A stretch of DNA of 64,000 nt from an uncultured Candidatus Binatia bacterium (lineage in GTDB: Bacteria; Desulfobacterota; Binatia; UBA9968; JAJDTQ01). The notes under the pieces are model-generated. The model was not told the origin of the DNA. It did not search any database and worked only from the letters and a program-made list of their open reading frames with translations. Where the stretch lies: the NCBI GenBank assembly GCA_965215605.1, contig OZ244070.1:2496001-2560000 (forward strand), in the 5' to 3' direction. A program made the position numbers and the translations under genes. Below, in pieces: positions 6,902-15,772 of this stretch (positions are counted from its first letter, which is position 1; each line of letters starts with the position of its first letter).

Positions 6902-7648
6902 ATGTCCGGACATTCCAAGTGGAGCACCATCAAGCACAAGAAGGCGGCGAAGGACGCCAAGCGGGGCAAGCTGTTCACCAAGTTCATCAAGGAGATTACG
7001 GTGGCGGCCCGCATGGGCGGGGGCGATATCACGAGCAACCCGCGTCTGCGCACCGCCGTCCAGACCGCCCGTGACAACAGCATGCCCAACGAGAACATCG
7101 AGCGCGCCATCAAGAAGGGGACCGGCGAGCTCGAAGGGGTGTCCTACGAAGAGGGGAGCTACGAGGGGTACGGCCCCGGCGGAGCCGCCTTTCTGGTGCA
7201 GGTCCTGACCGACAACCGCAACCGGACGGTGTCGGACATCCGGCGCATGTTCAACAAGCACGGCGGGAGTCTCGGCGAGACGGGCTGCGTGGCGTGGATG
7301 TTCGACAACAAGGGACTCATCGTCGTGTCCAAGGAGGCGGTGGATGAGGAGGCATTGCTGGGGCTCGCCCTGGAAGCCGGCGCCGAGGACGTCAACGAGA
7401 GCGACGACGTGTTCGAGATCGTCACCCAGCCCGAGGACTTCGCCACGGTGCGTGAGAGCCTCGACAGCGGCAACGTCCCGGTGGTGTCGGCCGAGGTGAC
7501 CATGATCCCCAAGACCACCACCACGCTCGGCGGCAAGGAAGCCGAGCAGACCCTCAACCTCACCGAGGACCTCGAGGACCACGACGACGTTCAAAGCGTC
7601 GCGGCCAACTTCGACATTCCGGACGAGATCATGGAGAAGGCCGGTTGA
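6902..7648 (+). CDS. yebC: YebC/PmpR family protein
   Basis: [29 protein letters not shown]. Confidence 0.96.
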
Positions 7649-7667
7649 CGCCGTCGGAGAACGAGAT

Positions 7668-8231
7668 ATCGAAACCATCCTGGGCATAGACCCCGGAACC
7701 CTCAAGACCGGGTGGGGCTTGATCCGCGCGGACGGCAACCGCCTGGAACACGTGGCCCACGGCACGGTCCGTACGTCCCCCAGCCAATCCCAGGACCGGC
7801 GCCTCCACCGGATATTCACCGAGCTGGCCAAGGTCATCCGGGAGCACGAGCCCGGGCACGTCAGCCTGGAGAAGGTCTTTCTGGCGCGCAATGTGCAGAG
7901 CGCATTCAAGCTCGGCCAGGTGCGCGGGGTAGCCCTGCTGGCGGCGGCGGAACGCGGTGTCGCCGTCTCCGAATACAACGCGGTCCAGGTCAAGAAGGCG
8001 TTGACCGGGTACGGCCACGCGGGCAAGGGCCAGATACAGCAAATGGTGACGGCCATCCTGGGGCTGCCCGGCGAACCCGAGGAGGATGCCGCCGACGCTC
8101 TGGCGGCCGCCATCTGCCACGGTCATCTGCACGCGTTCGGAGCCGGCGTCCTGGCCGGCACGGCCCGGCGGGGGAGAAGCTCCCGCGGGTTGCGCTGGCC
8201 GGCGGACACGCTGTCTGGCGGCAAGGGCTGA
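7668..8231 (+). CDS. ruvC: Holliday junction resolvase RuvC (probable ATC start)
   Basis: In-frame ETILGIDPG upstream of the listed TTG; SLEKVF, KLGQVRG, GYGHAGK, DAADALAAAICH. Confidence 0.92.
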   Translation: METILGIDPGTLKTGWGLIRADGNRLEHVAHGTVRTSPSQSQDRRLHRIFTELAKVIREHEPGHVSLEKVFLARNVQSAFKLGQVRGVALLAAAERGVAVSEYNAVQVKKALTGYGHAGKGQIQQMVTAILGLPGEPEEDAADALAAAICHGHLHAFGAGVLAGTARRGRSSRGLRWPADTLSGGKG

Positions 8232-8287
8232 AGGATGCGCGGTCTTCCATTGCCCGCAGCGCCGGCCGGTCCGGACGGAGTTCCATC

Positions 8288-8872
8288 GTGATCGCCAAGG
8301 TTCGCGGAATACTGGACCACAAGGCGCCGGGCGAGGTCATCGTGGACGTCGGCGGCGTCGGTTATCAACTGTTCACGGCGCTCAGCGTGTTCTACCGCTT
8401 GCCCGAGGTGGGGCAGCCGGTGACCCTGCTCGTGTACACCCATGTCCGGGAGGACGCCCTCCAGTTGTTCGGCTTCTACGACCCCGCGGAGAAACAGGCA
8501 TTCATGCTGCTGACCGGGGTGTCGGGCATCGGCCCCCGGCTGGCCCTCAACATCCTGTCGGGGATGGCGGCCGGGGAGCTGTTGGACGCCCTCCGGGAGG
8601 GCGACGTCGCCCGGCTGGTGTCGATACCGGGGGTGGGCAAGCGGCTGGCGGATCGCATGATCGTGGAGCTGCGTGATAGGATAGAAGCTCTGCCGGATGC
8701 CGCCCCGGAGGCGGCGGCCGCTCCCGGGATCCGGGGCGACGCGCTGTCGGCGCTGGTGAACCTCGGCTACCGGCGCCCGGATGCGGAGCGGGCCGTGCGT
8801 CAGGTGCTGGGCAACGGCGCCTCCGAGTTGGAAACGGTGCTCAAGGAAGCCCTGCGCCTGCTCAGCCTCTAG
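8288..8872 (+). CDS. ruvA: Holliday junction branch migration protein RuvA
   Basis: [44 protein letters not shown]. Confidence 0.96.
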
Positions 8873-8900
8873 CGTCACCGGATTCAGCGGAACCGCGTTC

Positions 8901-9938
8901 ATGGAAAACAGAGCCATCTTGCCCGCGGGCACCGAGGAGGACGTCCTCTACGACTCGAGCCTCCGCCCCCGGCGTTTCAGCGAATACTTCGGACAGGAGA
9001 AGGTCAAGGCCAACCTCGGGGTGGCCATCACGGCCGCCAAACGGCGCGGCGACGTGCTGGACCATCTCCTTTTCCACGGCCCTCCCGGCCTGGGCAAGAC
9101 CTCTCTGGCCCATCTGATCTCGAGGGAGATGGAGGTGGAGATACGGCCCACCTCCGGTCCGGTGGTGGAGCGGCCCGGAGATCTGGCCGCGCTGCTTACC
9201 AACCTCGACGTCGGCGACATCTTGTTCATCGACGAGATTCACCGCCTCAACCACATTGTGGAGGAGGTGCTGTACCCGGCCATGGAGGACTTCCAGGTGG
9301 ACGTGATGATCGGGCAGGGGCCCGGCGCCAAGTCCATCAAGCTGGAACTCAAGCGGTTCACGCTCATCGGCGCCACCACCCGTTCCGGCCTCCTGACCCC
9401 GGCGTTGCGCAACCGGTTCGGCGCCGTGTTCCGCCTCGACTTCTACGAGCCGGAGGTGTTGGCGAAGCTGCTTGCCCGGTCCGCGGCGCTGCTGGGCGTG
9501 GGCGGCGACGACGCCGGCTTCATGGAGATCGCCCGCCGCTCCCGCGGCACGCCGCGTATCGCCAACCGGCTGCTGCGCCGCGTCCGGGACTACGCCGAGG
9601 TCCACGGCGAGGGCAGGGTCACCCGGCCGGTGGCCTGTCAGGCCCTGGAGATGCTGGAGGTCGATGAGCAGGGTTGCGACAAGATGGACACGCTCCTCCT
9701 AACCACCATCATCGACAAGTTCGACGGCGGCCCCGTGGGACTGGACACTCTGGCGGCGGCCATCGGCGAGGAGCGGGGCACGGTGGAGGACGCCTACGAG
9801 CCGTACCTCATCCAGGCGGGCTTCCTGGAGCGCCGGCCCCAGGGCCGTGTGGCCACGCCGGTGGCGTACCGGCACCTCGGGCGGTCGCAGTCGGCGGCGC
9901 GCGTGGACAGGGAGAAGCGGCAGAAACGGCTCTTGTAG
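8901..9938 (+). CDS. ruvB: Holliday junction branch migration helicase RuvB
   Basis: [44 protein letters not shown]. Confidence 0.97.
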
Positions 9939-10082
9939 CGCTCACGGGAGCCCGTATCGACGGTGGCGTCGACACCGGCGCGGGGGACGGCTTGCCGGCC
10001 GGCGGGCGACGTCATTTCCTTTGTGCTTTGCGGGTGGAAGCGATAGAACGGTGTGACACGGGAGGCGGATCGAGCCACTCCG

Positions 10083-12305
10083 ATGAGCACGGTCAAAAAG
10101 GACGAAGAGACGCTCCGGGCCGAGGATCGGACGCGGCGCAGGCGTGAAGGCTGGCTGATACTCATCGCCGCCCTGATGATCCTGCTGTTCGCGTTCTTCG
10201 AGGATCTCCTGCCGGATGTCGCGGCGGACTACGCCTTCACCGGCAACGTCGCGTTCTTCCTGCTGGTCAACATCAACATCATCCTGCTGGTGCTGCTGGT
10301 CTTCCTGGTTTCGCGGAACCTCCTGAAGCTGGTGCTGGACCGGCGCAAGCGCATCCTCGGTTCCCGGCTGCAGGGGAGGCTGGTGTTGGCCTTCGTGGGC
10401 ATCTCCCTGGTGCCCACCGTGATGCTGTTCCTGATCGCCGAGAGCCTGGTGACGCGTTCCGTCGACAAGTGGTTTGACTCGCAGATCGTGAACGCCCTGA
10501 GGGGCTCCCTCGACATCAGCGCCACCTACTATCAGAACTCCGCGGACAACGCGCTTTACTTCGCCCGGCAGCTCAGCCAGCGCGTGGGCGACGGGCGGCT
10601 TCTGGAAGCGAAGAAGATCGACGGGCTGAAGCGTCTCGTGGAGGAAAAGCAGCGCGAGTACAATCTCGGCACGGTGGAGGTCTACAAGCCGGACGGGACC
10701 GCGCTGGTGAAGGCCTTCAACGACCAGGTGCCCACCGGGGTCACGGTGAGTTCGCAGGCGGATTTCCTCAACAGCGCGCTGCGGGGCCTGGAGGCGACCC
10801 GCACCCAATCCCTGGGCGAGGGCGACGTGCTGCGGGGCGCGGTGCCGGTGTACGGGGAGGGGAGGAGGATTATCGGGGCGGTGGTGGTGGACTACTTCGT
10901 GCCCACGAGCGTCAGCAAGAAGGCGCAGCAGATATCGCGCTCGTACGAGGAACACAAGCACTTGGCGGTCCTCAAGGAGCCCGTCAAGAACACCTATATC
11001 CTGACCCTGCTGCTCATCACCCTGGTGATGATCTTCGCGGCCACCTGGTTCGGGCTCGCGCTGGCCAAGGGCATCACCGTGCCGATCCAGCAGTTCGCGG
11101 AAGGGACCCACGAGGTCGCCCACGGCAACCTGGACTATCGCATCGAATCCGGCGGCGACGACGAGATCGGAGCGCTGGTGGCGTCCTTCAATCAAATGAC
11201 CGCGGATCTCAAGCACACCAACTCCGAGCTGGAGCAGCGGCGGCAATACATGGAGACGCTGCTGGCCAACATCACGGCCGGAGTGATTTCGGTGGACTGG
11301 TCGGGCAAGGTCACCATCATCAACAAGGCGGCCGAGCTGATGCTGGGCATCCACGCCGGGGACGTGCTCCGCCGGGACTACGAGGAAGCGCTGCAAGCCC
11401 CCGATCTGGCGCCCTTGCTCGACGTGATCAAGCAGGTCAGGGACAGTTCCGGCGTGGAACGCGACGTACGGATCGTGGGCCGCGACCGGCCCCTGACGCT
11501 CATGACCGTGGCCGCCAGCCTACGGGACGACGACGGCAACACGCTCGGCATCATGGTCTTCATGGAGGACATTACCGAGATCCAGAAGATCCAGCGGGTG
11601 GAGGCTTGGCGCGAGGTGGCGCGCCGCATCGCTCACGAGATCAAGAATCCGCTGACGCCGATCCAGCTTTCGGCGCAACGTCTGCGGAAGCGTTACGAGA
11701 ACGTTCTGGACGGAGACGGGGCCGTGCTCGACAAGTGCACGTCCACCATCATCCGGCAAGTGGACGAGCTCAAGACCCTGGTGAACGAGTTCTCCAACTT
11801 CGCCCGGCTGCCCACCGCCCAACTCGTTGCGGACGATCTCAACGAGGTGGTCCGCGAAGCGCTTTTCCTGTTCAAGGAAGGGCACCGGGACGTCGAGTTC
11901 GACTTCTCGGAGGATGCCTCGGTTCCGCCTGTCGAGCTGGATCGCGAGCAGATCAAGCGCGCCATCTTCAACTTGTTGGACAACGCCGTGGCTTCGCTCG
12001 ACGGCACGGGGCGCGTCGAGATCGCCATCCGGTTCGACGAGGCTTTCGGCATGGTGCGGCTGGAGGTGGCGGACGAAGGGGAAGGCATCGCCCGGGAGGA
12101 CCGGGGCCGGATCTTCGAGCCCTACTACTCCACCAAGAAGGACGGCACGGGGCTGGGTCTGTCCATCGTGGGAACCATCGTCGCCGACCACCGGGGATAC
12201 ATCCGCGTGCGCCAGAACCAGCCCCACGGAACACGCTTCATCGTCGAGCTCCCCTCGGCCTTGCAGGCGGACGCCCAGGATTTCCGTGCCAGCGAGGCAT
12301 CCTGA
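10083..12305 (+). CDS. NtrY-like membrane sensor histidine kinase (TM-periplasmic-HAMP-PAS-HisKA-HATPase)
   Basis: Three N-terminal TMs plus one after the periplasmic domain; HAMP (DEIGALVASFNQMT); H-box WREVARRIAHEIKNPLTPIQLSAQRL; NLLDNA, DEGEG, GTGLGL. Alternative GTG start at 10053. Confidence 0.93.
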   Translation: MSTVKKDEETLRAEDRTRRRREGWLILIAALMILLFAFFEDLLPDVAADYAFTGNVAFFLLVNINIILLVLLVFLVSRNLLKLVLDRRKRILGSRLQGRLVLAFVGISLVPTVMLFLIAESLVTRSVDKWFDSQIVNALRGSLDISATYYQNSADNALYFARQLSQRVGDGRLLEAKKIDGLKRLVEEKQREYNLGTVEVYKPDGTALVKAFNDQVPTGVTVSSQADFLNSALRGLEATRTQSLGEGDVLRGAVPVYGEGRRIIGAVVVDYFVPTSVSKKAQQISRSYEEHKHLAVLKEPVKNTYILTLLLITLVMIFAATWFGLALAKGITVPIQQFAEGTHEVAHGNLDYRIESGGDDEIGALVASFNQMTADLKHTNSELEQRRQYMETLLANITAGVISVDWSGKVTIINKAAELMLGIHAGDVLRRDYEEALQAPDLAPLLDVIKQVRDSSGVERDVRIVGRDRPLTLMTVAASLRDDDGNTLGIMVFMEDITEIQKIQRVEAWREVARRIAHEIKNPLTPIQLSAQRLRKRYENVLDGDGAVLDKCTSTIIRQVDELKTLVNEFSNFARLPTAQLVADDLNEVVREALFLFKEGHRDVEFDFSEDASVPPVELDREQIKRAIFNLLDNAVASLDGTGRVEIAIRFDEAFGMVRLEVADEGEGIAREDRGRIFEPYYSTKKDGTGLGLSIVGTIVADHRGYIRVRQNQPHGTRFIVELPSALQADAQDFRASEAS

Positions 12306-12349
12306 GCCGGAGCGGGCCGAACCGAGACGTCATGGAGGATCCAGAAAAC

Positions 12350-13696
12350 ATGGAGTCAGCCCAAAGAACCGTGCTGGTGGTGGACGACGAGGACGTCATC
12401 CGCGAAACCGTACGCGAGATTCTCACCGACGAGGGCTACCGCGTGGTGGCCGCCGCCAACGGTTCGGAGGTCCTGGGCCTGGTGGAGAATGAGAGGCCCG
12501 ACGTCATCCTCCTGGACATCTGGATGCCCGAGATGGACGGGATCGTCCTCCTCAAGCAGATCAAGCGGGAGCATCCGGACGCCCGGATCGTCATGATCTC
12601 CGGCCACGGGAGCATTCACACGGCGGTAACGGCCACGCAGTTGGGGGCGTTCGATTTCATCGAGAAGCCGCTTTCCCTGGACGGGTTGCTGGCCACCGTC
12701 GAGCGGGCCTGCGGTGACGCGGGGCGCGAGGGTCCCGCCGCCGACGAGGGGCCGCGGGCGCTCCGAACCGGCCTCCCGGGGCTGTCGGCCCAAGGAGGTT
12801 TCCAAGGCAACGGCGGCGTGCCCCAGAAGACCCTCAGGAAAAGCGTGGTGGCGTGCGGTCTGGGCCTGCATTCAGGCGTCAGCACGGGCGTCATCCTGCA
12901 TCCCTTGCCGGAGGACAGCGGCATCCACTTCGGCGGAATCTCCGCCGACGCCACCGTGCCGGCGCATCTGGACTACGTGCGATCCACGGACTTCGCCACC
13001 TCGCTCCAGCGCGGCGGCGTGGTGGTGGGCACGGTGGAGCACCTGCTGGCGACGCTCCACTCGTACGGCATCACCAACCTGCTGATCAAGATGTACGGCG
13101 AGATTCCCATCATGGACGGCTCCGCCATGGAGTTCTGCCGGTTGATCGAGGAAGCTGGGGTGGTGGAGCAGCCGGGGCGATGCCCCGAGATCGTCATCGA
13201 CCGGACCCTTCGCGTAACCGGGGACGGGCAGGAAGAGATTTTCATCGAGCCGGCCGACCGGTTCATCGTCCACTACCGGCTTCAATATCCGCGTCCGGTG
13301 GGGATGCAGGAGTACACCTACGTGCACGAGGGCGCGGATTCGTTCCGCGACCAGGTCGCCCCTGCCCGGACTTTCGGTTTCCTGCGCGACTTCGAGAAAC
13401 TCGAGCGGATGGGCCTGATCAAGGGCGGCCGGCTCGGCAACTGCATCCTCTTCGACGAAGAGAAGGTCATCAACACGGAGTTGCGGTTCGACGACGAGCT
13501 CGCTCGCCACAAGATCCTGGATATCGTGGGAGACTTCTCGCTCATCGGCGGTTCCGTGCGCGGCCGGGTGACCGCGAACATGACGGGTCATGCCGACAAC
13601 ATCGCGTTGTTGCGGCAGGTCGCGGAAATCTATTGCCCCTCGGATGACCGGACCGCCGGCGGGGCCCGCCCCCATCCGGATCCGCTGTCCCCTTGA
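12350..13696 (+). CDS. lpxC: Receiver domain fused to UDP-3-O-acyl-N-acetylglucosamine deacetylase LpxC
   Basis: REC: VLVVDDE, LLDIWMP, ISGHG, FIEKP. LpxC: QKTL..GLGLHSG, TVEHLL, EIPIMDGSA, ARTFGF, RHKILD..GD, TGHADN. One continuous frame; alternative ATG at 12332. Confidence 0.93.
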   Translation: MESAQRTVLVVDDEDVIRETVREILTDEGYRVVAAANGSEVLGLVENERPDVILLDIWMPEMDGIVLLKQIKREHPDARIVMISGHGSIHTAVTATQLGAFDFIEKPLSLDGLLATVERACGDAGREGPAADEGPRALRTGLPGLSAQGGFQGNGGVPQKTLRKSVVACGLGLHSGVSTGVILHPLPEDSGIHFGGISADATVPAHLDYVRSTDFATSLQRGGVVVGTVEHLLATLHSYGITNLLIKMYGEIPIMDGSAMEFCRLIEEAGVVEQPGRCPEIVIDRTLRVTGDGQEEIFIEPADRFIVHYRLQYPRPVGMQEYTYVHEGADSFRDQVAPARTFGFLRDFEKLERMGLIKGGRLGNCILFDEEKVINTELRFDDELARHKILDIVGDFSLIGGSVRGRVTANMTGHADNIALLRQVAEIYCPSDDRTAGGARPHPDPLSP

Positions 13697-13711
13697 TGCC
13701 GGCCGTGATCG

Positions 13712-14128
13712 TCAGTTCCCGTCGAGTCCCAGCCGCCCGGCGAAGGGCTCGGGGAGCCGGAGGAGCTTGCGGTCGCGGCCGAGGCAGGCGTGCTTGGTCC
13801 AGCCCGAAGCCAGGGCGGCGCGTTCCCCCTCCAGACAGATCCGATAGTTGAATCGCAGGGCCACCCGGCTGAGGGACTCCACGGTGGTCTCGATCCGCAG
13901 CAGATTGTCGTAGACGGCCGGCCTGCGGTAACGGCACTGGACCTCGGTGACCGGGAAGAAGACGCCGTCCCGTTCCGCCTGGTCATAGGGGAAGCCGGCC
14001 TCCCGCATGAGCTCGGTCCTGCCGATCTCGAACCAGCGGAGGTAGTTCGCGTAGTAGGCGACGCCCATCTGGTCGGTATCGCCGTATATGACACGATAGG
14101 TGGTGATGTTCTTCACGGTCGGCGCCAA
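13712..14128 (-). CDS. Acyl-CoA thioesterase (YbgC/4HBT hot-dog family)
   Basis: RVIYGDTDQMGVAYYANYLRWFEIGRTE. Confidence 0.9.
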   Translation of the reverse strand: MAPTVKNITTYRVIYGDTDQMGVAYYANYLRWFEIGRTELMREAGFPYDQAERDGVFFPVTEVQCRYRRPAVYDNLLRIETTVESLSRVALRFNYRICLEGERAALASGWTKHACLGRDRKLLRLPEPFAGRLGLDGN

Positions 14129-14176
14129 CTCAAGGCCCGTAGGACGAACGCGCCGCGAGCACCCGGGGAACCCCGG

Positions 14177-15100
14177 TCAGTCGTCGGCTTTATCGCTCGG
14201 CGGGGCGGGTTGATTGAAGTCCCAGCGGTCACGGCTGGCCACCCGGATGTCCAGGGAACCGTCCCCGCGGATCACGTGGAAGGTGATGAGATCCCCCGCC
14301 CGCTTCTTCCAGACTTCCCGGTAGAGCTGGGGCCGCGTCTGCACTTCCTGTTCCTCCACGGAAAGGATGATGTCGCCCTGCTTGAGGCCCGCCGCTTCCG
14401 CGGGCCCCGACGGGGTGACCCCGGTGACCACCACGTGGCCGCCGAGACCCTGCGGGTACAGGCCGAGCCAGGGGCGGGGCGGGCGGCTCTGGACACGCCC
14501 GAAACGCCTGAGCTCGTCGGCGTCCCGAAGGTAGCACTCCACCGGGATGGCGAGCGTGAACTTGCCGACGTCGTTCAGGTTCAGGGACACGACCCCGAGG
14601 AGGCGGCCGCGGGAGTCCGCCAGCGTGCCCCCGCCGAACCCGGGATTGAACGTGCTCACCCGGATGGATCGTTCGAGCAGGTATTCCCACTGTCCGTCGT
14701 AGCCTTCGAGAGAGGTCACGTTGCCGTCGCTGACCCGCCGGTTGTTCTGTCCGCTGCTGGCGATCATGAACGCGGGTTGACCCACGGCGACGGACTCCGC
14801 CGGGCGAAGGAACGGGAGGTCGGCGGCGTCGATGTCGACCAGCGCGAGTCCGGTGTCGAAGTCCTGCGCGGTCAGGCGGCCCGGGTATTGCTTCCCGTCC
14901 GACAAGGTAACGGTAATCGCTTCGGCGCCGTTGACGACGTAGTTGACGGTCAGGATGGTGCCCGCGGGATCGACGATGGTGCCGGAGCCCATGCGCTCGG
15001 TGCCCAGGTTCCGGGCGGACGGGTGGTGTGACGGCACCCTCGTGTTGAGGTCCACCGTGGCCAGCAGCACAGCATGCACCAGACCCAGCCGCGCGTTCAC
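14177..15100 (-). CDS. S1C/HtrA-like trypsin-fold plus PDZ protein with degenerate catalytic triad
   Basis: GSGTIVD, LTVNYVV, TGLALV, NPGFGGG; PDZ WLGL...GPAEAAGLKQGDIIL. Confidence 0.85.
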   Translation of the reverse strand: MNARLGLVHAVLLATVDLNTRVPSHHPSARNLGTERMGSGTIVDPAGTILTVNYVVNGAEAITVTLSDGKQYPGRLTAQDFDTGLALVDIDAADLPFLRPAESVAVGQPAFMIASSGQNNRRVSDGNVTSLEGYDGQWEYLLERSIRVSTFNPGFGGGTLADSRGRLLGVVSLNLNDVGKFTLAIPVECYLRDADELRRFGRVQSRPPRPWLGLYPQGLGGHVVVTGVTPSGPAEAAGLKQGDIILSVEEQEVQTRPQLYREVWKKRAGDLITFHVIRGDGSLDIRVASRDRWDFNQPAPPSDKADD

Positions 15101-15203
15101 GCCCCACCTCCCAAAGGTTCCCAAGCTCGGGGAACCGGAATCGAGGCTCTTTGCGTTAGCAGAAACGTTCTGAGTTCACAAGGTATCGGGGGCGCGCGCC
15201 ACG

Positions 15204-15233
15204 TTGACAACGGCGTCTCGGGCCGGGTATCAA
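15204..15233 (+). promoter_or_regulatory. Putative sigma70 promoter of the yceD-rpmF-plsX-fab operon
   Basis: Perfect TTGACA, 18 nt spacer, TATCAA, about 20 nt before the GTG start. Confidence 0.4.
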
Positions 15234-15253
15234 GTCTGGACTGGAGTGGCCTT

Positions 15254-15772
15254 GTGAAAATCCCCATCAACCGGATCGAGACCGTTCCCAAGGAAAGCCG
15301 TTTCTCCGAGGTCCCCGACATGGGCCACGAGGAACGCCCGGCGGCGGTGCGCTTTCCCTCGCCGATCCAGGTGAACGTCACCTACTACCGGTCGGGTCGG
15401 GAGCTGTTCTTTCACGGCGGACTCAAGGGTCAGGTGGAGGCGGACTGCAGCCGTTGTCTGGAAGGCGTCGCCTTCGTCATCGAAAAAAACTTCGACTTCG
15501 TGTTGACCCCGGACCCCCTTCCGACTAATAAAAACAGGGAGCTCACGGACGACGAGATGGGCCTGAGTTTCTACTCCGGGGACGATGTCGAGTTGTCGCC
15601 CTACGTCCGTGAGCAGATGTTGCTCGCCCTGCCTCTCCGGCCGCTTTGCAGCGAAAGCTGTCGTGGCCTGTGTCCCGGTTGCGGTGCCGAGTTGAACCGG
15701 ACTGGTTGTGAGTGCACGTCGCCGGGTGATCCCCGCATGGCGGTATTTCGTAATCTCCGGCTGGACCGTTAG
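15254..15772 (+). CDS. yceD: DUF177/YceD family protein
   Basis: CSRCLE, REQMLLALP, LCSESCRGLCPGCG, DPRM; lies upstream of rpmF. Confidence 0.9.
   Translation: MKIPINRIETVPKESRFSEVPDMGHEERPAAVRFPSPIQVNVTYYRSGRELFFHGGLKGQVEADCSRCLEGVAFVIEKNFDFVLTPDPLPTNKNRELTDDEMGLSFYSGDDVELSPYVREQMLLALPLRPLCSESCRGLCPGCGAELNRTGCECTSPGDPRMAVFRNLRLDR

Follow-up and report, generated by a model that had tools for sequence, protein, structure and literature searches.

LpxC catalyses an essential, flux-controlling step of lipid A synthesis and is an antibiotic target. According to a 2025 review (PMC12444477), LpxC is controlled mainly by proteolysis, besides which a small number of inhibitory proteins and some indirect effects on transcription are listed; the terms 'response regulator', 'fusion' and 'fused' do not occur in its main text. 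In E. coli, the FtsH/LapB(YciM)/YejM system acts post-translationally and specifically on LpxC and balances lipid A against phospholipid synthesis (PMC12444477). A kinase pathway with LpxC as its only known target has been described in Desulfovibrio (DVU2931/Dde_3000 with DVU2934/Dde_3003; PMC3333781, PMC4045070): lpxC is the single target of the D. vulgaris sigma-54 regulator DVU2934 (PMC3333781), and in a mutant of the D. alaskensis kinase Dde_3000 lpxC alone was changed, its expression being raised on loss of the kinase (PMC4045070). In S. fumaroxidans, the operon of the orthologous regulator has lpxC immediately upstream, as noted by Rajeev et al. (PMC3333781). The NtrYX system affects lpxC mRNA and the level of LPS in R. 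sphaeroides and C. crescentus (PMC12444477, PMC7240162), with lpxC mRNA increased 8.8-fold upon loss of NtrYX in R. sphaeroides (PMC7240162); NtrX, however, acts as a transcription factor of REC-AAA+-HTH architecture that has a broad regulon and influences lpxC only indirectly (PMC7240162), whereas at the locus described here the output of the receiver is LpxC itself. Another natural LpxC fusion is LpxC-FabZ/FabA (NF009667; PF03331-PF04977; bioRxiv 10.1101/2025.10.16.682753). Its partner is a metabolic enzyme at the C-terminus, in contrast to the N-terminal signalling domain of the REC-LpxC protein.

Response regulators with enzymatic output domains, such as CheB, PleD/WspR and RpfG, resemble the present protein in having receiver, linker and enzyme in one polypeptide that is paired with a histidine kinase, and the expected logic of such proteins is relief of inhibition, or dimerisation, upon phosphorylation. 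Their outputs are signalling enzymes, i.e. a methylesterase or enzymes making or breaking cyclic-di-GMP, whereas here the receiver is joined to an essential enzyme of biosynthesis, one that catalyses the committed step in a bulk pathway of the envelope. Neither a response regulator with an essential biosynthetic enzyme as output nor a description of a REC-LpxC fusion was found in the literature searched.

The locus is situated in a 64,000-nt stretch of DNA (the window) from an uncultured Candidatus Binatia bacterium, with all genes discussed on the + strand. Downstream of ruvB (8901..9938), the end of a ruvC-ruvA-ruvB run in the ORF table, an NtrY-type sensor histidine kinase of 750 aa is encoded at 10053..12305 (ORF table, Pfam). 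The sequence-only reading had recognised this kinase correctly with a start at ATG 10083, which corresponds to residue 11 of the same frame and may serve as an alternative start, while the ORF opens at GTG 10053. The Pfam matches comprise NtrY_N (28.8 bits, cut-off 23.2; residues 37-225), HAMP (337-387), PAS (399-507), HisKA (519-586) and HATPase_c (630-735), the layout of NtrY, and the kinase boxes are found at residues 528 (H-box, HEIKNP), 640 (N-box), 674 (G1) and 698 (G2). The predicted phospho-accepting His528 (codon 11634..11636) belongs to the H-box inside the HisKA match. The membrane sensor module (10140..11081) has four hydrophobic segments on a Kyte-Doolittle scan (residues 30-58, 60-96, 106-135 and 310-343), and the loop of about 175 residues between them is probably extracytoplasmic; a weak sCache_3_2 match at residues 161-279 falls under its cut-off. 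Between the kinase stop and the start of the next gene there is a spacer of only 26 nt (12306..12331), with one additional G in a near-identical strain. Since this short spacer contains no terminator-like site, the two genes are probably co-transcribed. Neither a + strand terminator nor a sigma-70-like promoter was found in 9700-14300, and no sigma-54 site precedes the kinase or the following gene in the window.

That following gene (12332..13696; ATG 12332, 454 aa plus stop; ORF table, translation and domain matches) encodes, in one uninterrupted ORF, a receiver, a disordered linker and a complete LpxC; Pfam detected neither an AAA+ nor an HTH domain in the protein. Its frame remains open back to 11606 in the ORF table; long spurious frames are common in high-GC DNA such as the window. 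The NCBIfam model of NtrX (NF051870), which has a cut-off of 600 bits, matched the receiver alone (residues 13-127) and reached 128.5 bits, and the LpxC-FabZ/FabA model NF009667 reached 202 bits against a cut-off of 465. The protein thus departs from the REC-AAA+-HTH architecture of NtrX, whereas the kinase has that of NtrY.

The receiver (12371..12700; residues 14-123; PF00072 Response_reg, E 6e-34, 117 bits) is of the NtrX/NtrC type, with NtrX as its best relative both in NCBIfam and among solved structures (4d6x and 5m7n). It has the acidic pair DD (D18, D19), the predicted phospho-acceptor D62 of LLDIWMP (codon 12515..12517), S90 of ISGHG, the aromatic switch residue F107 and K112 of EKP, as is typical for response regulators, and all six residues are invariant in 124/124 aligned fusion proteins with identities down to about 50%. 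In the AF2 model the strands and helices of the receiver alternate with pLDDT around 90. A comparison of 28 receivers of short fusions with those of 52 kinase-adjacent regulators revealed the same consensus at every well-conserved position and no fusion-specific signature; there is, consequently, no sequence sign of a new LpxC-docking surface.

The LpxC catalytic domain (12824..13624; residues 165-431) matches PF03331 over profile positions 1-267 of 268 (E 7e-79; 265.6 bits, cut-off 27) and TIGR00325 lpxC with 239.7 bits (cut-off 187.25), and can be aligned over its whole length with LpxC chains of Pseudomonas whose structures are solved (E 4e-51). The TVEH, HKILD, GH and RTFGF motifs of these chains are matched by E236 and H237 (codons 13037..13042), by H393, K394 and D397 (13508..13522), by H420 (13589..13591) and by T347, respectively, and all of them, together with D401, are invariant in the 124 fusion proteins. 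We take H237 (the first ligand), H393 and D397 to be the zinc ligands and E236, the general base, to form the catalytic Glu/His pair with H420, which corresponds to His265 of E. coli; T347 and K394 likewise belong to the active site. By its full-length match and intact active-site residues the protein is an LpxC family member and a predicted deacetylase, and, as the receiver pocket and the LpxC active site are invariant in 124/124 sequences, both halves are evidently under selection.

The two halves are connected by a flexible Gly/Ala/Pro-rich linker (12710..12823; residues ~127-164; pLDDT <50 at residues 130-160), the least conserved region in the alignment of the 124 proteins, where both length and sequence differ among homologues; a rigid receiver-LpxC coupling is disfavoured by a linker so long, disordered and variable. 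The C-terminal tail (13643..13693; residues 438-454; pLDDT <50) is likewise disordered and shows no conservation. With 58 of 454 residues disordered, the AF2 model still has a pTM of 0.82, from which, arithmetically, a confident placement of the receiver against LpxC would follow, a hint of docking. The main features proposed from the letters of the window, i.e. a single ORF with an NtrX-like receiver and a full LpxC directly after an NtrY-type kinase, the seven named motifs of the two domains and a linker of roughly 35 aa, were therefore all recovered.

A single reading frame could also arise if two genes were joined by a sequencing error. Such an artefact might be suspected in DNA where spurious frames are common and where this one extends far upstream of its start codon, the more so as among 123 relatives the gene is split by frameshifts in two genomes (G077, G121) and contains an in-frame TGA in a third (G007). 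Contigs from two studies, however, bridge the fusion. One of 2180 nt from another study covers 11900-13445, from the end of the kinase through receiver and linker into LpxC, most of which it includes; it differs by 16 substitutions and has no indels within the fusion gene, and one of 6260 nt covers 12668-13700 exactly. A one-piece match spanning both domains was obtained in 107/123 genomes of the same order (103/119 without four unpublished genomes), and each of the best 120 database matches carries both Pfam domains. The artefact is refuted by the independent contigs, the conservation in the order and the two-domain database matches taken together. In the phylum sample, about 60 of 251 genomes have a fused form, and all 18 loci examined for confirmation were fused. 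The worries raised by the sequence-only reading, that the fusion might be unique to this assembly or unsupported, are thereby dispelled, while its guess that the architecture may already be present in databases was correct: the proteins are there, named 'UDP-3-O-acyl-N-acetylglucosamine deacetylase' only.

The same reading had asked about a second, stand-alone lpxC and about adjacency to ntrY-like genes. The fusion is the sole LpxC in the 97%-complete genome, and a second LpxC-like match was seen in just 2 of the 123 same-order genomes. The search of the lipid A pathway, covering LpxA, LpxB and LpxK alongside LpxC, also found lpxA (two LpxA-type matches), lpxB and lpxK above cut-off. LapB was not recognised in this genome; its single PF18073 match, which lies N-terminally in an ORF unrelated to LapB, was rejected, that family also matching in Gram-positive control genomes. 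As for the kinase, the pairing is conserved: it is directly upstream in 12 of the 22 short-fusion loci with sufficient upstream sequence (L002-L009, L014, L017, L097, L098) and also at the long forms L091 and L094, with RuvB directly upstream of it in L002-L009, L017 and L097 (tblastn). It is non-adjacent in the other 10/22; in each of the five unlinked genomes tested, a single ortholog of the kinase is retained, and no gene for a receiver lies within 1.5 kb of it.

The origin of the fusion may be read from relatives in which the domains are still separate. The order in these unfused loci is a standalone lpxC, sometimes a DUF4390 gene (a likeness to the NtrY/NtrX system), the kinase ortholog and a REC-Sigma54_activat-HTH_8 regulator, whose receiver is 50-60% identical to that of the fusion. 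The GAFTGA-type loop is kept in 24/32 of the unfused-locus regulators. A -24/-12 sigma-54 element precedes lpxC in 16 of 22 unfused loci, compared with 116 of 1247 background windows, at a distance of 43-105 nt (237 nt in one case); in the same promoter scan it was present in 14/14 GAFTGA-positive loci and in 1/6 without GAFTGA. By gene order and promoter sequence, these relatives show what would be an ancestral functional link of the kinase and regulator with lpxC. As their regulator is a sigma-54 activator, phosphorylation would be expected to raise lpxC expression there; the opposite direction is on record for D. alaskensis and R. sphaeroides, where loss of the kinase raised lpxC (PMC4045070, PMC7240162). 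Other lineages possess a long REC-AAA+-LpxC form, the GAFTGA loop being lost in 8/8 cases. In the LpxC-domain tree, a branch with an SH-aLRT of 99 separates all 37 fused sequences (29 short, 8 long) from the 22 kinase-adjacent standalone LpxCs, and the long and short forms are interleaved. Given the unfused lpxC-kinase-activator loci with their sigma-54 promoter and the long form, the fusion receiver seems to derive from a regulator that formerly controlled transcription of lpxC. The starting point would have been a kinase and a sigma-54 activator that served the transcription of lpxC alone; the activator would then have fused to its own target enzyme, giving REC-AAA+-LpxC, and loss of the AAA+ and DNA-binding parts in the lineage of the window would have left the short REC-LpxC. 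The order from long to short is the simpler reading of a tree that has no outside root.

The unfused relatives follow the logic known from Desulfovibrio, with a kinase, a REC-AAA+-HTH regulator that contains GAFTGA and, ahead of lpxC, a sigma-54 promoter; their sites are similar to the published D. alaskensis -24/-12 site, and their gene order corresponds to that described for lpxC and the regulator in S. fumaroxidans. This likeness is one of architecture and pathway logic. Control in Desulfovibrio is transcriptional, whereas the locus in the window has no AAA+ domain, DNA-binding domain or sigma-54 site, and its receiver is part of the enzyme. An HD-GYP regulator, which is a further member of the Desulfovibrio operon (PMC3333781), was not seen at this locus. 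The locus is accordingly best classed, on architecture, as a putative derivative of the Desulfovibrio-type lpxC-dedicated system and not as a member, because the GAFTGA sigma-54 activator and the sigma-54 promoter are absent.

We consider it somewhat more probable than not that a housekeeping LpxC is here tethered to a working receiver, that the upstream NtrY-type kinase is its partner and that the arrangement descended from an lpxC-dedicated kinase/sigma-54 activator pair. Its most likely function would be to let phosphorylation control either how active or how stable LpxC is. The membrane kinase would read an envelope-related signal and set the phosphorylation state of Asp62 in a receiver attached through the flexible linker to the N-terminus of the cell's housekeeping enzyme; we infer the phosphotransfer from kinase to fusion, any effect on LpxC and the sign of that effect. 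The whole chain, in which an NtrY-type kinase senses the envelope and phosphorylates the only LpxC via a receiver captured from the enzyme's own former transcription factor, is in our judgement evenly poised between right and wrong. Points that speak against the main explanation are the receiver without a signature of its own, the long and variable linker, the 10/22 loci with a non-adjacent kinase and the opposite signs of control suggested by the sigma-54 activator of the unfused relatives and by the loss of the kinase in D. alaskensis and R. sphaeroides.

The level of LpxC in E. coli is set by proteolysis, and receiver proteins such as RssB and CpdR gate proteolysis, so that phosphorylation might control the lifetime of LpxC and not its rate, by exposing or hiding a degron or by recruiting a protease. 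Proteolysis being the main LpxC control described (PMC12444477), and the long disordered linker and the C-terminal tail being typical protease entry sites in a protein with no new docking surface on its receiver, this deserves consideration. E. coli LpxC is, however, degraded via a C-terminal degron, whereas the tail of the fusion is wholly unconserved in the family, so no conserved degron is visible; with no LapB recognised in the genome either, lifetime control appears unlikely. Still less probable is a receiver that is a relic, or a constitutive dimerisation or solubility module, on an LpxC that is not signal-controlled. Parts of the old regulator have indeed decayed, as seen in the lost GAFTGA loops of the long forms and the missing AAA+-HTH part of the short ones, and many lineages have the kinase gene at a separate locus, but a relic's phospho-acceptor pocket would be expected to decay as well, yet it is invariant throughout the family, and the unlinked genomes retain a kinase with no other adjacent receiver. 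Phosphate-sink receivers occur in other two-component systems, and no other partner is encoded next to the kinase; the flow might then be reversed, LpxC or its substrate-bound state modulating the receiver as a sink or feedback that tunes another, unseen output of the kinase. This seems very improbable, since no other output was found adjoining the kinase, the protein of this genome that best matches the unfused regulator over its full length is only 44% identical and is encoded 450 kb away, and, the fusion being the sole LpxC, catalysis is its essential role in any case.

Regulation of LpxC outside Enterobacteria is an open question in the field, and a receiver on the sole LpxC across whole orders suggests a simple phosphorylation switch on outer-membrane synthesis. 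It also marks the family of NtrY-type kinases as envelope sensors dedicated to lpxC; such dedicated sensing could help to explain the LPS and envelope defects of NtrYX mutants in model alphaproteobacteria. The series from unfused through long to short forms illustrates clearly how, in nature, a regulator fuses with the target that it controls. If the proposed control is true, the regulator-to-target fusion would short-circuit the pathway, would represent the first two-component response regulator with an essential bulk-biosynthetic enzyme as its output, and would keep LPS in balance independently of FtsH/LapB.

The two genes lie directly downstream of ruvC, ruvA and ruvB (7719-9938, plus strand, with ruvB ending at 9938). 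The ORF table and the translation place the NtrY-type sensor histidine kinase (750 aa) at 10053-12305 and the REC-LpxC fusion (454 aa) at 12332-13696, both on the plus strand and separated by a spacer of 26 nt. The kinase contains the Pfam domains NtrY_N, HAMP, PAS, HisKA and HATPase_c, has a loop of ~175 residues bordered by four hydrophobic segments, and retains intact H (His528), N, G1 and G2 boxes. The fusion consists of a Response_reg domain (residues 14-123; E 6e-34) and, C-terminal to it, a complete LpxC (165-431; E 7e-79), and passes the curated NCBIfam lpxC model with 239.7 bits (cut-off 187.25). A sequence-only reading had already proposed this pairing of an NtrY-like kinase with a receiver-LpxC fusion; its coordinates and every motif it named proved correct in the ORF table, translation, Pfam matches and alignments. 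NtrX was the best receiver-only match of the fusion in NCBIfam, at a score below the cut-off of that model, and Pfam found no AAA+ or HTH domain left in the protein; for these two reasons the fusion is not NtrX.

A site scan found neither a terminator nor a sigma-70-like promoter between the two genes. Over the whole of 9700-14300 the scan gave no sigma-70-like site, and its two terminator-like sites, a chance-level number, fall within the kinase gene on the minus strand. Neither the kinase nor the fusion is preceded by a sigma-54 site, the sole site in 7001-12400 being at 7882 within the ruvC coding sequence. The fusion frame is open for 242 codons upstream of the true start (11606-12331), overlapping the kinase gene, which is a high-GC artefact that inflates the 'open frame' length (1072 aa). 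Downstream are three ORFs named from translation only, for a 4HBT-type thioesterase-like protein (13712-14128, minus strand), a trypsin/PDZ-like protease (14177-15124, minus strand) and a DUF177/YceD-like protein (15074-15772, plus strand); the same three follow the fusion in four of the loci fetched from relatives (L003-L005 and L017). Furthermore, ruvB adjoins the kinase or the lpxC block in both fused and unfused relatives (e.g. L002-L009, L025, L038, L045, L072 and L110).

That the fused ORF might be a product of assembly or gene calling was considered and is excluded by the contigs of two studies, by database relatives and by the genomes of the order. In one study, contigs of two runs are identical to the window over 12047-12685 and 12668-13700, and in the second study a single contig of 2180 nt spans 11900-13445, differing by 16 substitutions and by one additional base in the intergenic spacer, so that the linker is bridged in both. 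The latter strain is ~99% identical, and its extra G is located at 12308. Both Pfam domains were present in all of the best 120 of 7896 database candidates, down to 62% identity; the architecture, which the sequence-only reading suspected might already sit in databases, indeed occurs there in thousands of entries under the plain name LpxC. Within the order to which the organism belongs, 107/123 genomes yielded a one-piece match across both domains (103/119 when four unpublished genomes are excluded); contig ends or frameshifts break up the match in 12 of the others, and 4 are incomplete genomes with matches at receiver level only. In three of the 123 genomes the gene is interrupted, by one in-frame TGA in genome G007 (contig C190) and by receiver and LpxC parts in adjacent, different frames in G077 and G121 (contig C24 of each); the cause may be sequencing errors or genuine secondary splitting. 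The fusion is real, ancient and widespread.

Alignment of the fusion to solved Pseudomonas LpxC chains demonstrated that the TVEH, RTFGF, HKILD-x3-D and GH motifs are all present. Among 124 fusion proteins, the receiver residues D18, D19, D62, S90, F107 and K112 and the LpxC residues E236, H237, T347, H393, K394, D397, D401 and H420 are invariant (124/124), and F348 varies in one. By these sequence hallmarks the protein is both a true LpxC and a true receiver-domain protein. The LpxC domain also carries a signature of the fusion clade at 13 positions, e.g. K253, C269 and G186. No second LpxC, stand-alone or otherwise, was found in the 97% complete genome, in which LpxB, LpxK and two LpxA-type genes are present ~1.2 Mb away. 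A second LpxC-like match occurred in 2/123 genomes of the order (G087:C171:1559-2374 and G021:C28:3-650, with identities of 38% and 42%), the latter of which, at a contig end, may be contamination. Since the motifs are intact, the copy is the sole one, lipid A genes accompany it and second copies are rare in the order, the fusion is the housekeeping LpxC and not a spare copy.

Three states emerged when species-representative genomes were scanned and the genes of the window were then compared by tblastn with the loci. The unfused state was found in records labelled Syntrophales, Desulfobacterales, Geobacteraceae, Desulfuromonas and Acidobacteriota, where a standalone lpxC (~300 aa) is followed, sometimes after a DUF4390 gene, by a kinase ortholog (37-48% identity over ~650 residues) and a regulator (~455 aa; REC-Sigma54_activat-AAA_lid-HTH_8 in L022) whose receiver is 50-60% identical to that of the fusion. 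The DUF4390 protein, secreted-looking and of ~190 aa, is in many unfused relatives encoded in the interval from lpxC to the kinase (L038 4813-5373 and L072 4720-5304; also L021, L023, L108 and L110), whereas the interval from ruvB to the kinase in the window has no DUF4390 gene. In one unfused locus, L070, the kinase-adjacent receiver gene (7663-8013) is on the opposite strand, unlike in all others. The long fusions (670-840 aa), found in Nitrospinaceae and several families of the phylum of the window, consist of REC, a weakened sigma-54 AAA+ domain, an AAA lid and LpxC; all eight lack the GAFTGA loop and keep the Walker A motif, and in L091 and L094 the fusion gene directly follows that of the kinase. 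In a sample of 251 genomes of the phylum, ~60 have a fused form, namely 32 one-piece short forms (REC-linker-LpxC), and 9 further short and 19 long forms assigned by frame length; the other genomes mostly have a standalone LpxC (35-43% identity). The 18 loci fetched as a check were all fused (13 short and 5 long), and the ten drawn from the frame-length group confirmed its assignments.

A maximum-likelihood tree of LpxC domains separates all 37 fused sequences from 22 kinase-adjacent standalone enzymes by a branch with SH-aLRT 99, and interleaves the long and short forms. This tree has no outside root, and would be compatible with a single ancient fusion after which the AAA+-HTH part was lost several times. 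A tree of the receiver domain (104 rows, 115 columns) was too poorly resolved to place the fused receivers, and its label 'other' is muddied by cut contigs.

The GAFTGA-type sigma-54 contact loop is kept in 24 of the 32 kinase-adjacent regulators of unfused loci. With GG and GC fixed and at least 8 of 11 consensus positions matched, a -24/-12 element was detected upstream of the standalone lpxC in 16/22 loci, against 116/1247 background windows, and 15 of the 16 elements are located 43-105 nt before the lpxC start; at the stricter 9 of 11 positions the counts are 7/22 and 19/1247. The element is present in 14/14 loci scored GAFTGA-positive in the scan, as opposed to 1/6 without GAFTGA. The retained loops and the sigma-54 elements together show an ancestral link between kinase and lpxC that is regulatory and transcriptional, in agreement with published experiments. 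The text on Desulfovibrio vulgaris in PMC3333781 gives lpxC as the single target of the sigma-54 regulator DVU2934, and places lpxC of S. fumaroxidans immediately upstream of the orthologous operon. For D. alaskensis, PMC4045070 describes a transposon mutant in the kinase Dde_3000 whose effect is essentially confined to lpxC, a gene with a sigma-54 site, and in R. sphaeroides loss of NtrYX is reported to raise lpxC mRNA 8.8-fold (PMC7240162) and also LPS (PMC12444477). As a query, the published 16-nt sigma-54 site of D. alaskensis gave at least 117 chance matches, none of those listed adjoining lpxC, and the published regulator site combined with the sigma-54 site at a gap of 50-80 nt gave 0 matches.

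The expectation that the fusion adjoins ntrY-like genes across genomes held in part. Among the 22 short-fusion loci whose upstream sequence reaches 2.3 kb or more (six others were too short to tell), the kinase is directly upstream in 12 (L002-L009, L014, L017, L097 and L098), including all examined members of the order and class of the window, and absent from that position in the other 10 (L012, L089, L090, L095, L096, L099-L102 and L104). All five unlinked genomes searched have one full-length kinase ortholog elsewhere (32-47% identity), and no receiver-encoding gene was found within its 1.5-kb flanks in any of the five; two of these orthologs have a DUF4390 gene upstream. Judged from gene content, an orphan kinase and an orphan receiver-enzyme have the look of a conserved but unlinked pair. 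Searching the genome of the window for a full-length counterpart of the unfused regulator gave, at best, a generic NtrC-family protein (44% identity) far from the fusion locus.

Most likely, the NtrY-type kinase would set the phosphorylation state of Asp62 in the receiver, and this state would switch LpxC output at the protein level. We infer phosphotransfer and an effect on LpxC, which may act on catalysis, through CheB-like relief of inhibition or through dimerisation, or alternatively on the lifetime of LpxC. Sigma-54 activators normally need phosphorylation to act, and by this logic the signal would raise LpxC. The opposite direction is indicated by both published mutants, in which kinase loss is reported to have raised lpxC (PMC7240162, PMC4045070). 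A LapB candidate was rejected, being a single PF18073 match at the N-terminus of an ORF, and PF18073 also matches in Gram-positive control genomes. That ORF (L106 2045-3001; G000:C1 ~2138.5 kb) shows an N-terminal zinc-ribbon match without the LapB layout.

The AlphaFold2 model, built on a 57-sequence alignment, has two well-folded domains (mean pLDDT 83.6), with disorder predicted for residues 1-9, 130-160 and 438-454. Its pTM of 0.82 exceeds the ~0.6 expected for a free-floating receiver of 120 residues and, by arithmetic on this one number, gives a hint that the receiver may dock on LpxC in a preferred way. No fusion-specific receiver residues were found: wherever a position is well conserved, the short fusions and the kinase-adjacent regulators have the same consensus residue. 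Together with a long linker that varies among fusion proteins, this shared consensus would argue against a purpose-built docking surface.

The fusion falls outside the Desulfovibrio-type transcriptional system (kinase DVU2931/Dde_3000 and activator DVU2934/Dde_3003), from which it seems to derive. No paper describing a receiver-LpxC fusion was found in the open-access literature and bioRxiv, where some matches were judged by title or abstract. A passage of one preprint mentions LpxC-FabA and not receiver-LpxC (bioRxiv 10.1101/2025.10.16.682753), and 'response regulator', 'fusion' and 'fused' are absent from the main text of a 2025 review of lipid A regulation (PMC12444477). The fusion is apparently unstudied. 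Response regulators with enzyme output are a known kind, of which CheB and PleD are examples, and the fusion belongs to it. By analogy it would work like CheB and PleD, but with an essential biosynthetic enzyme as its output; with this fusion, ordinary biochemistry can test for a direct phosphorylation switch on lipid A synthesis.
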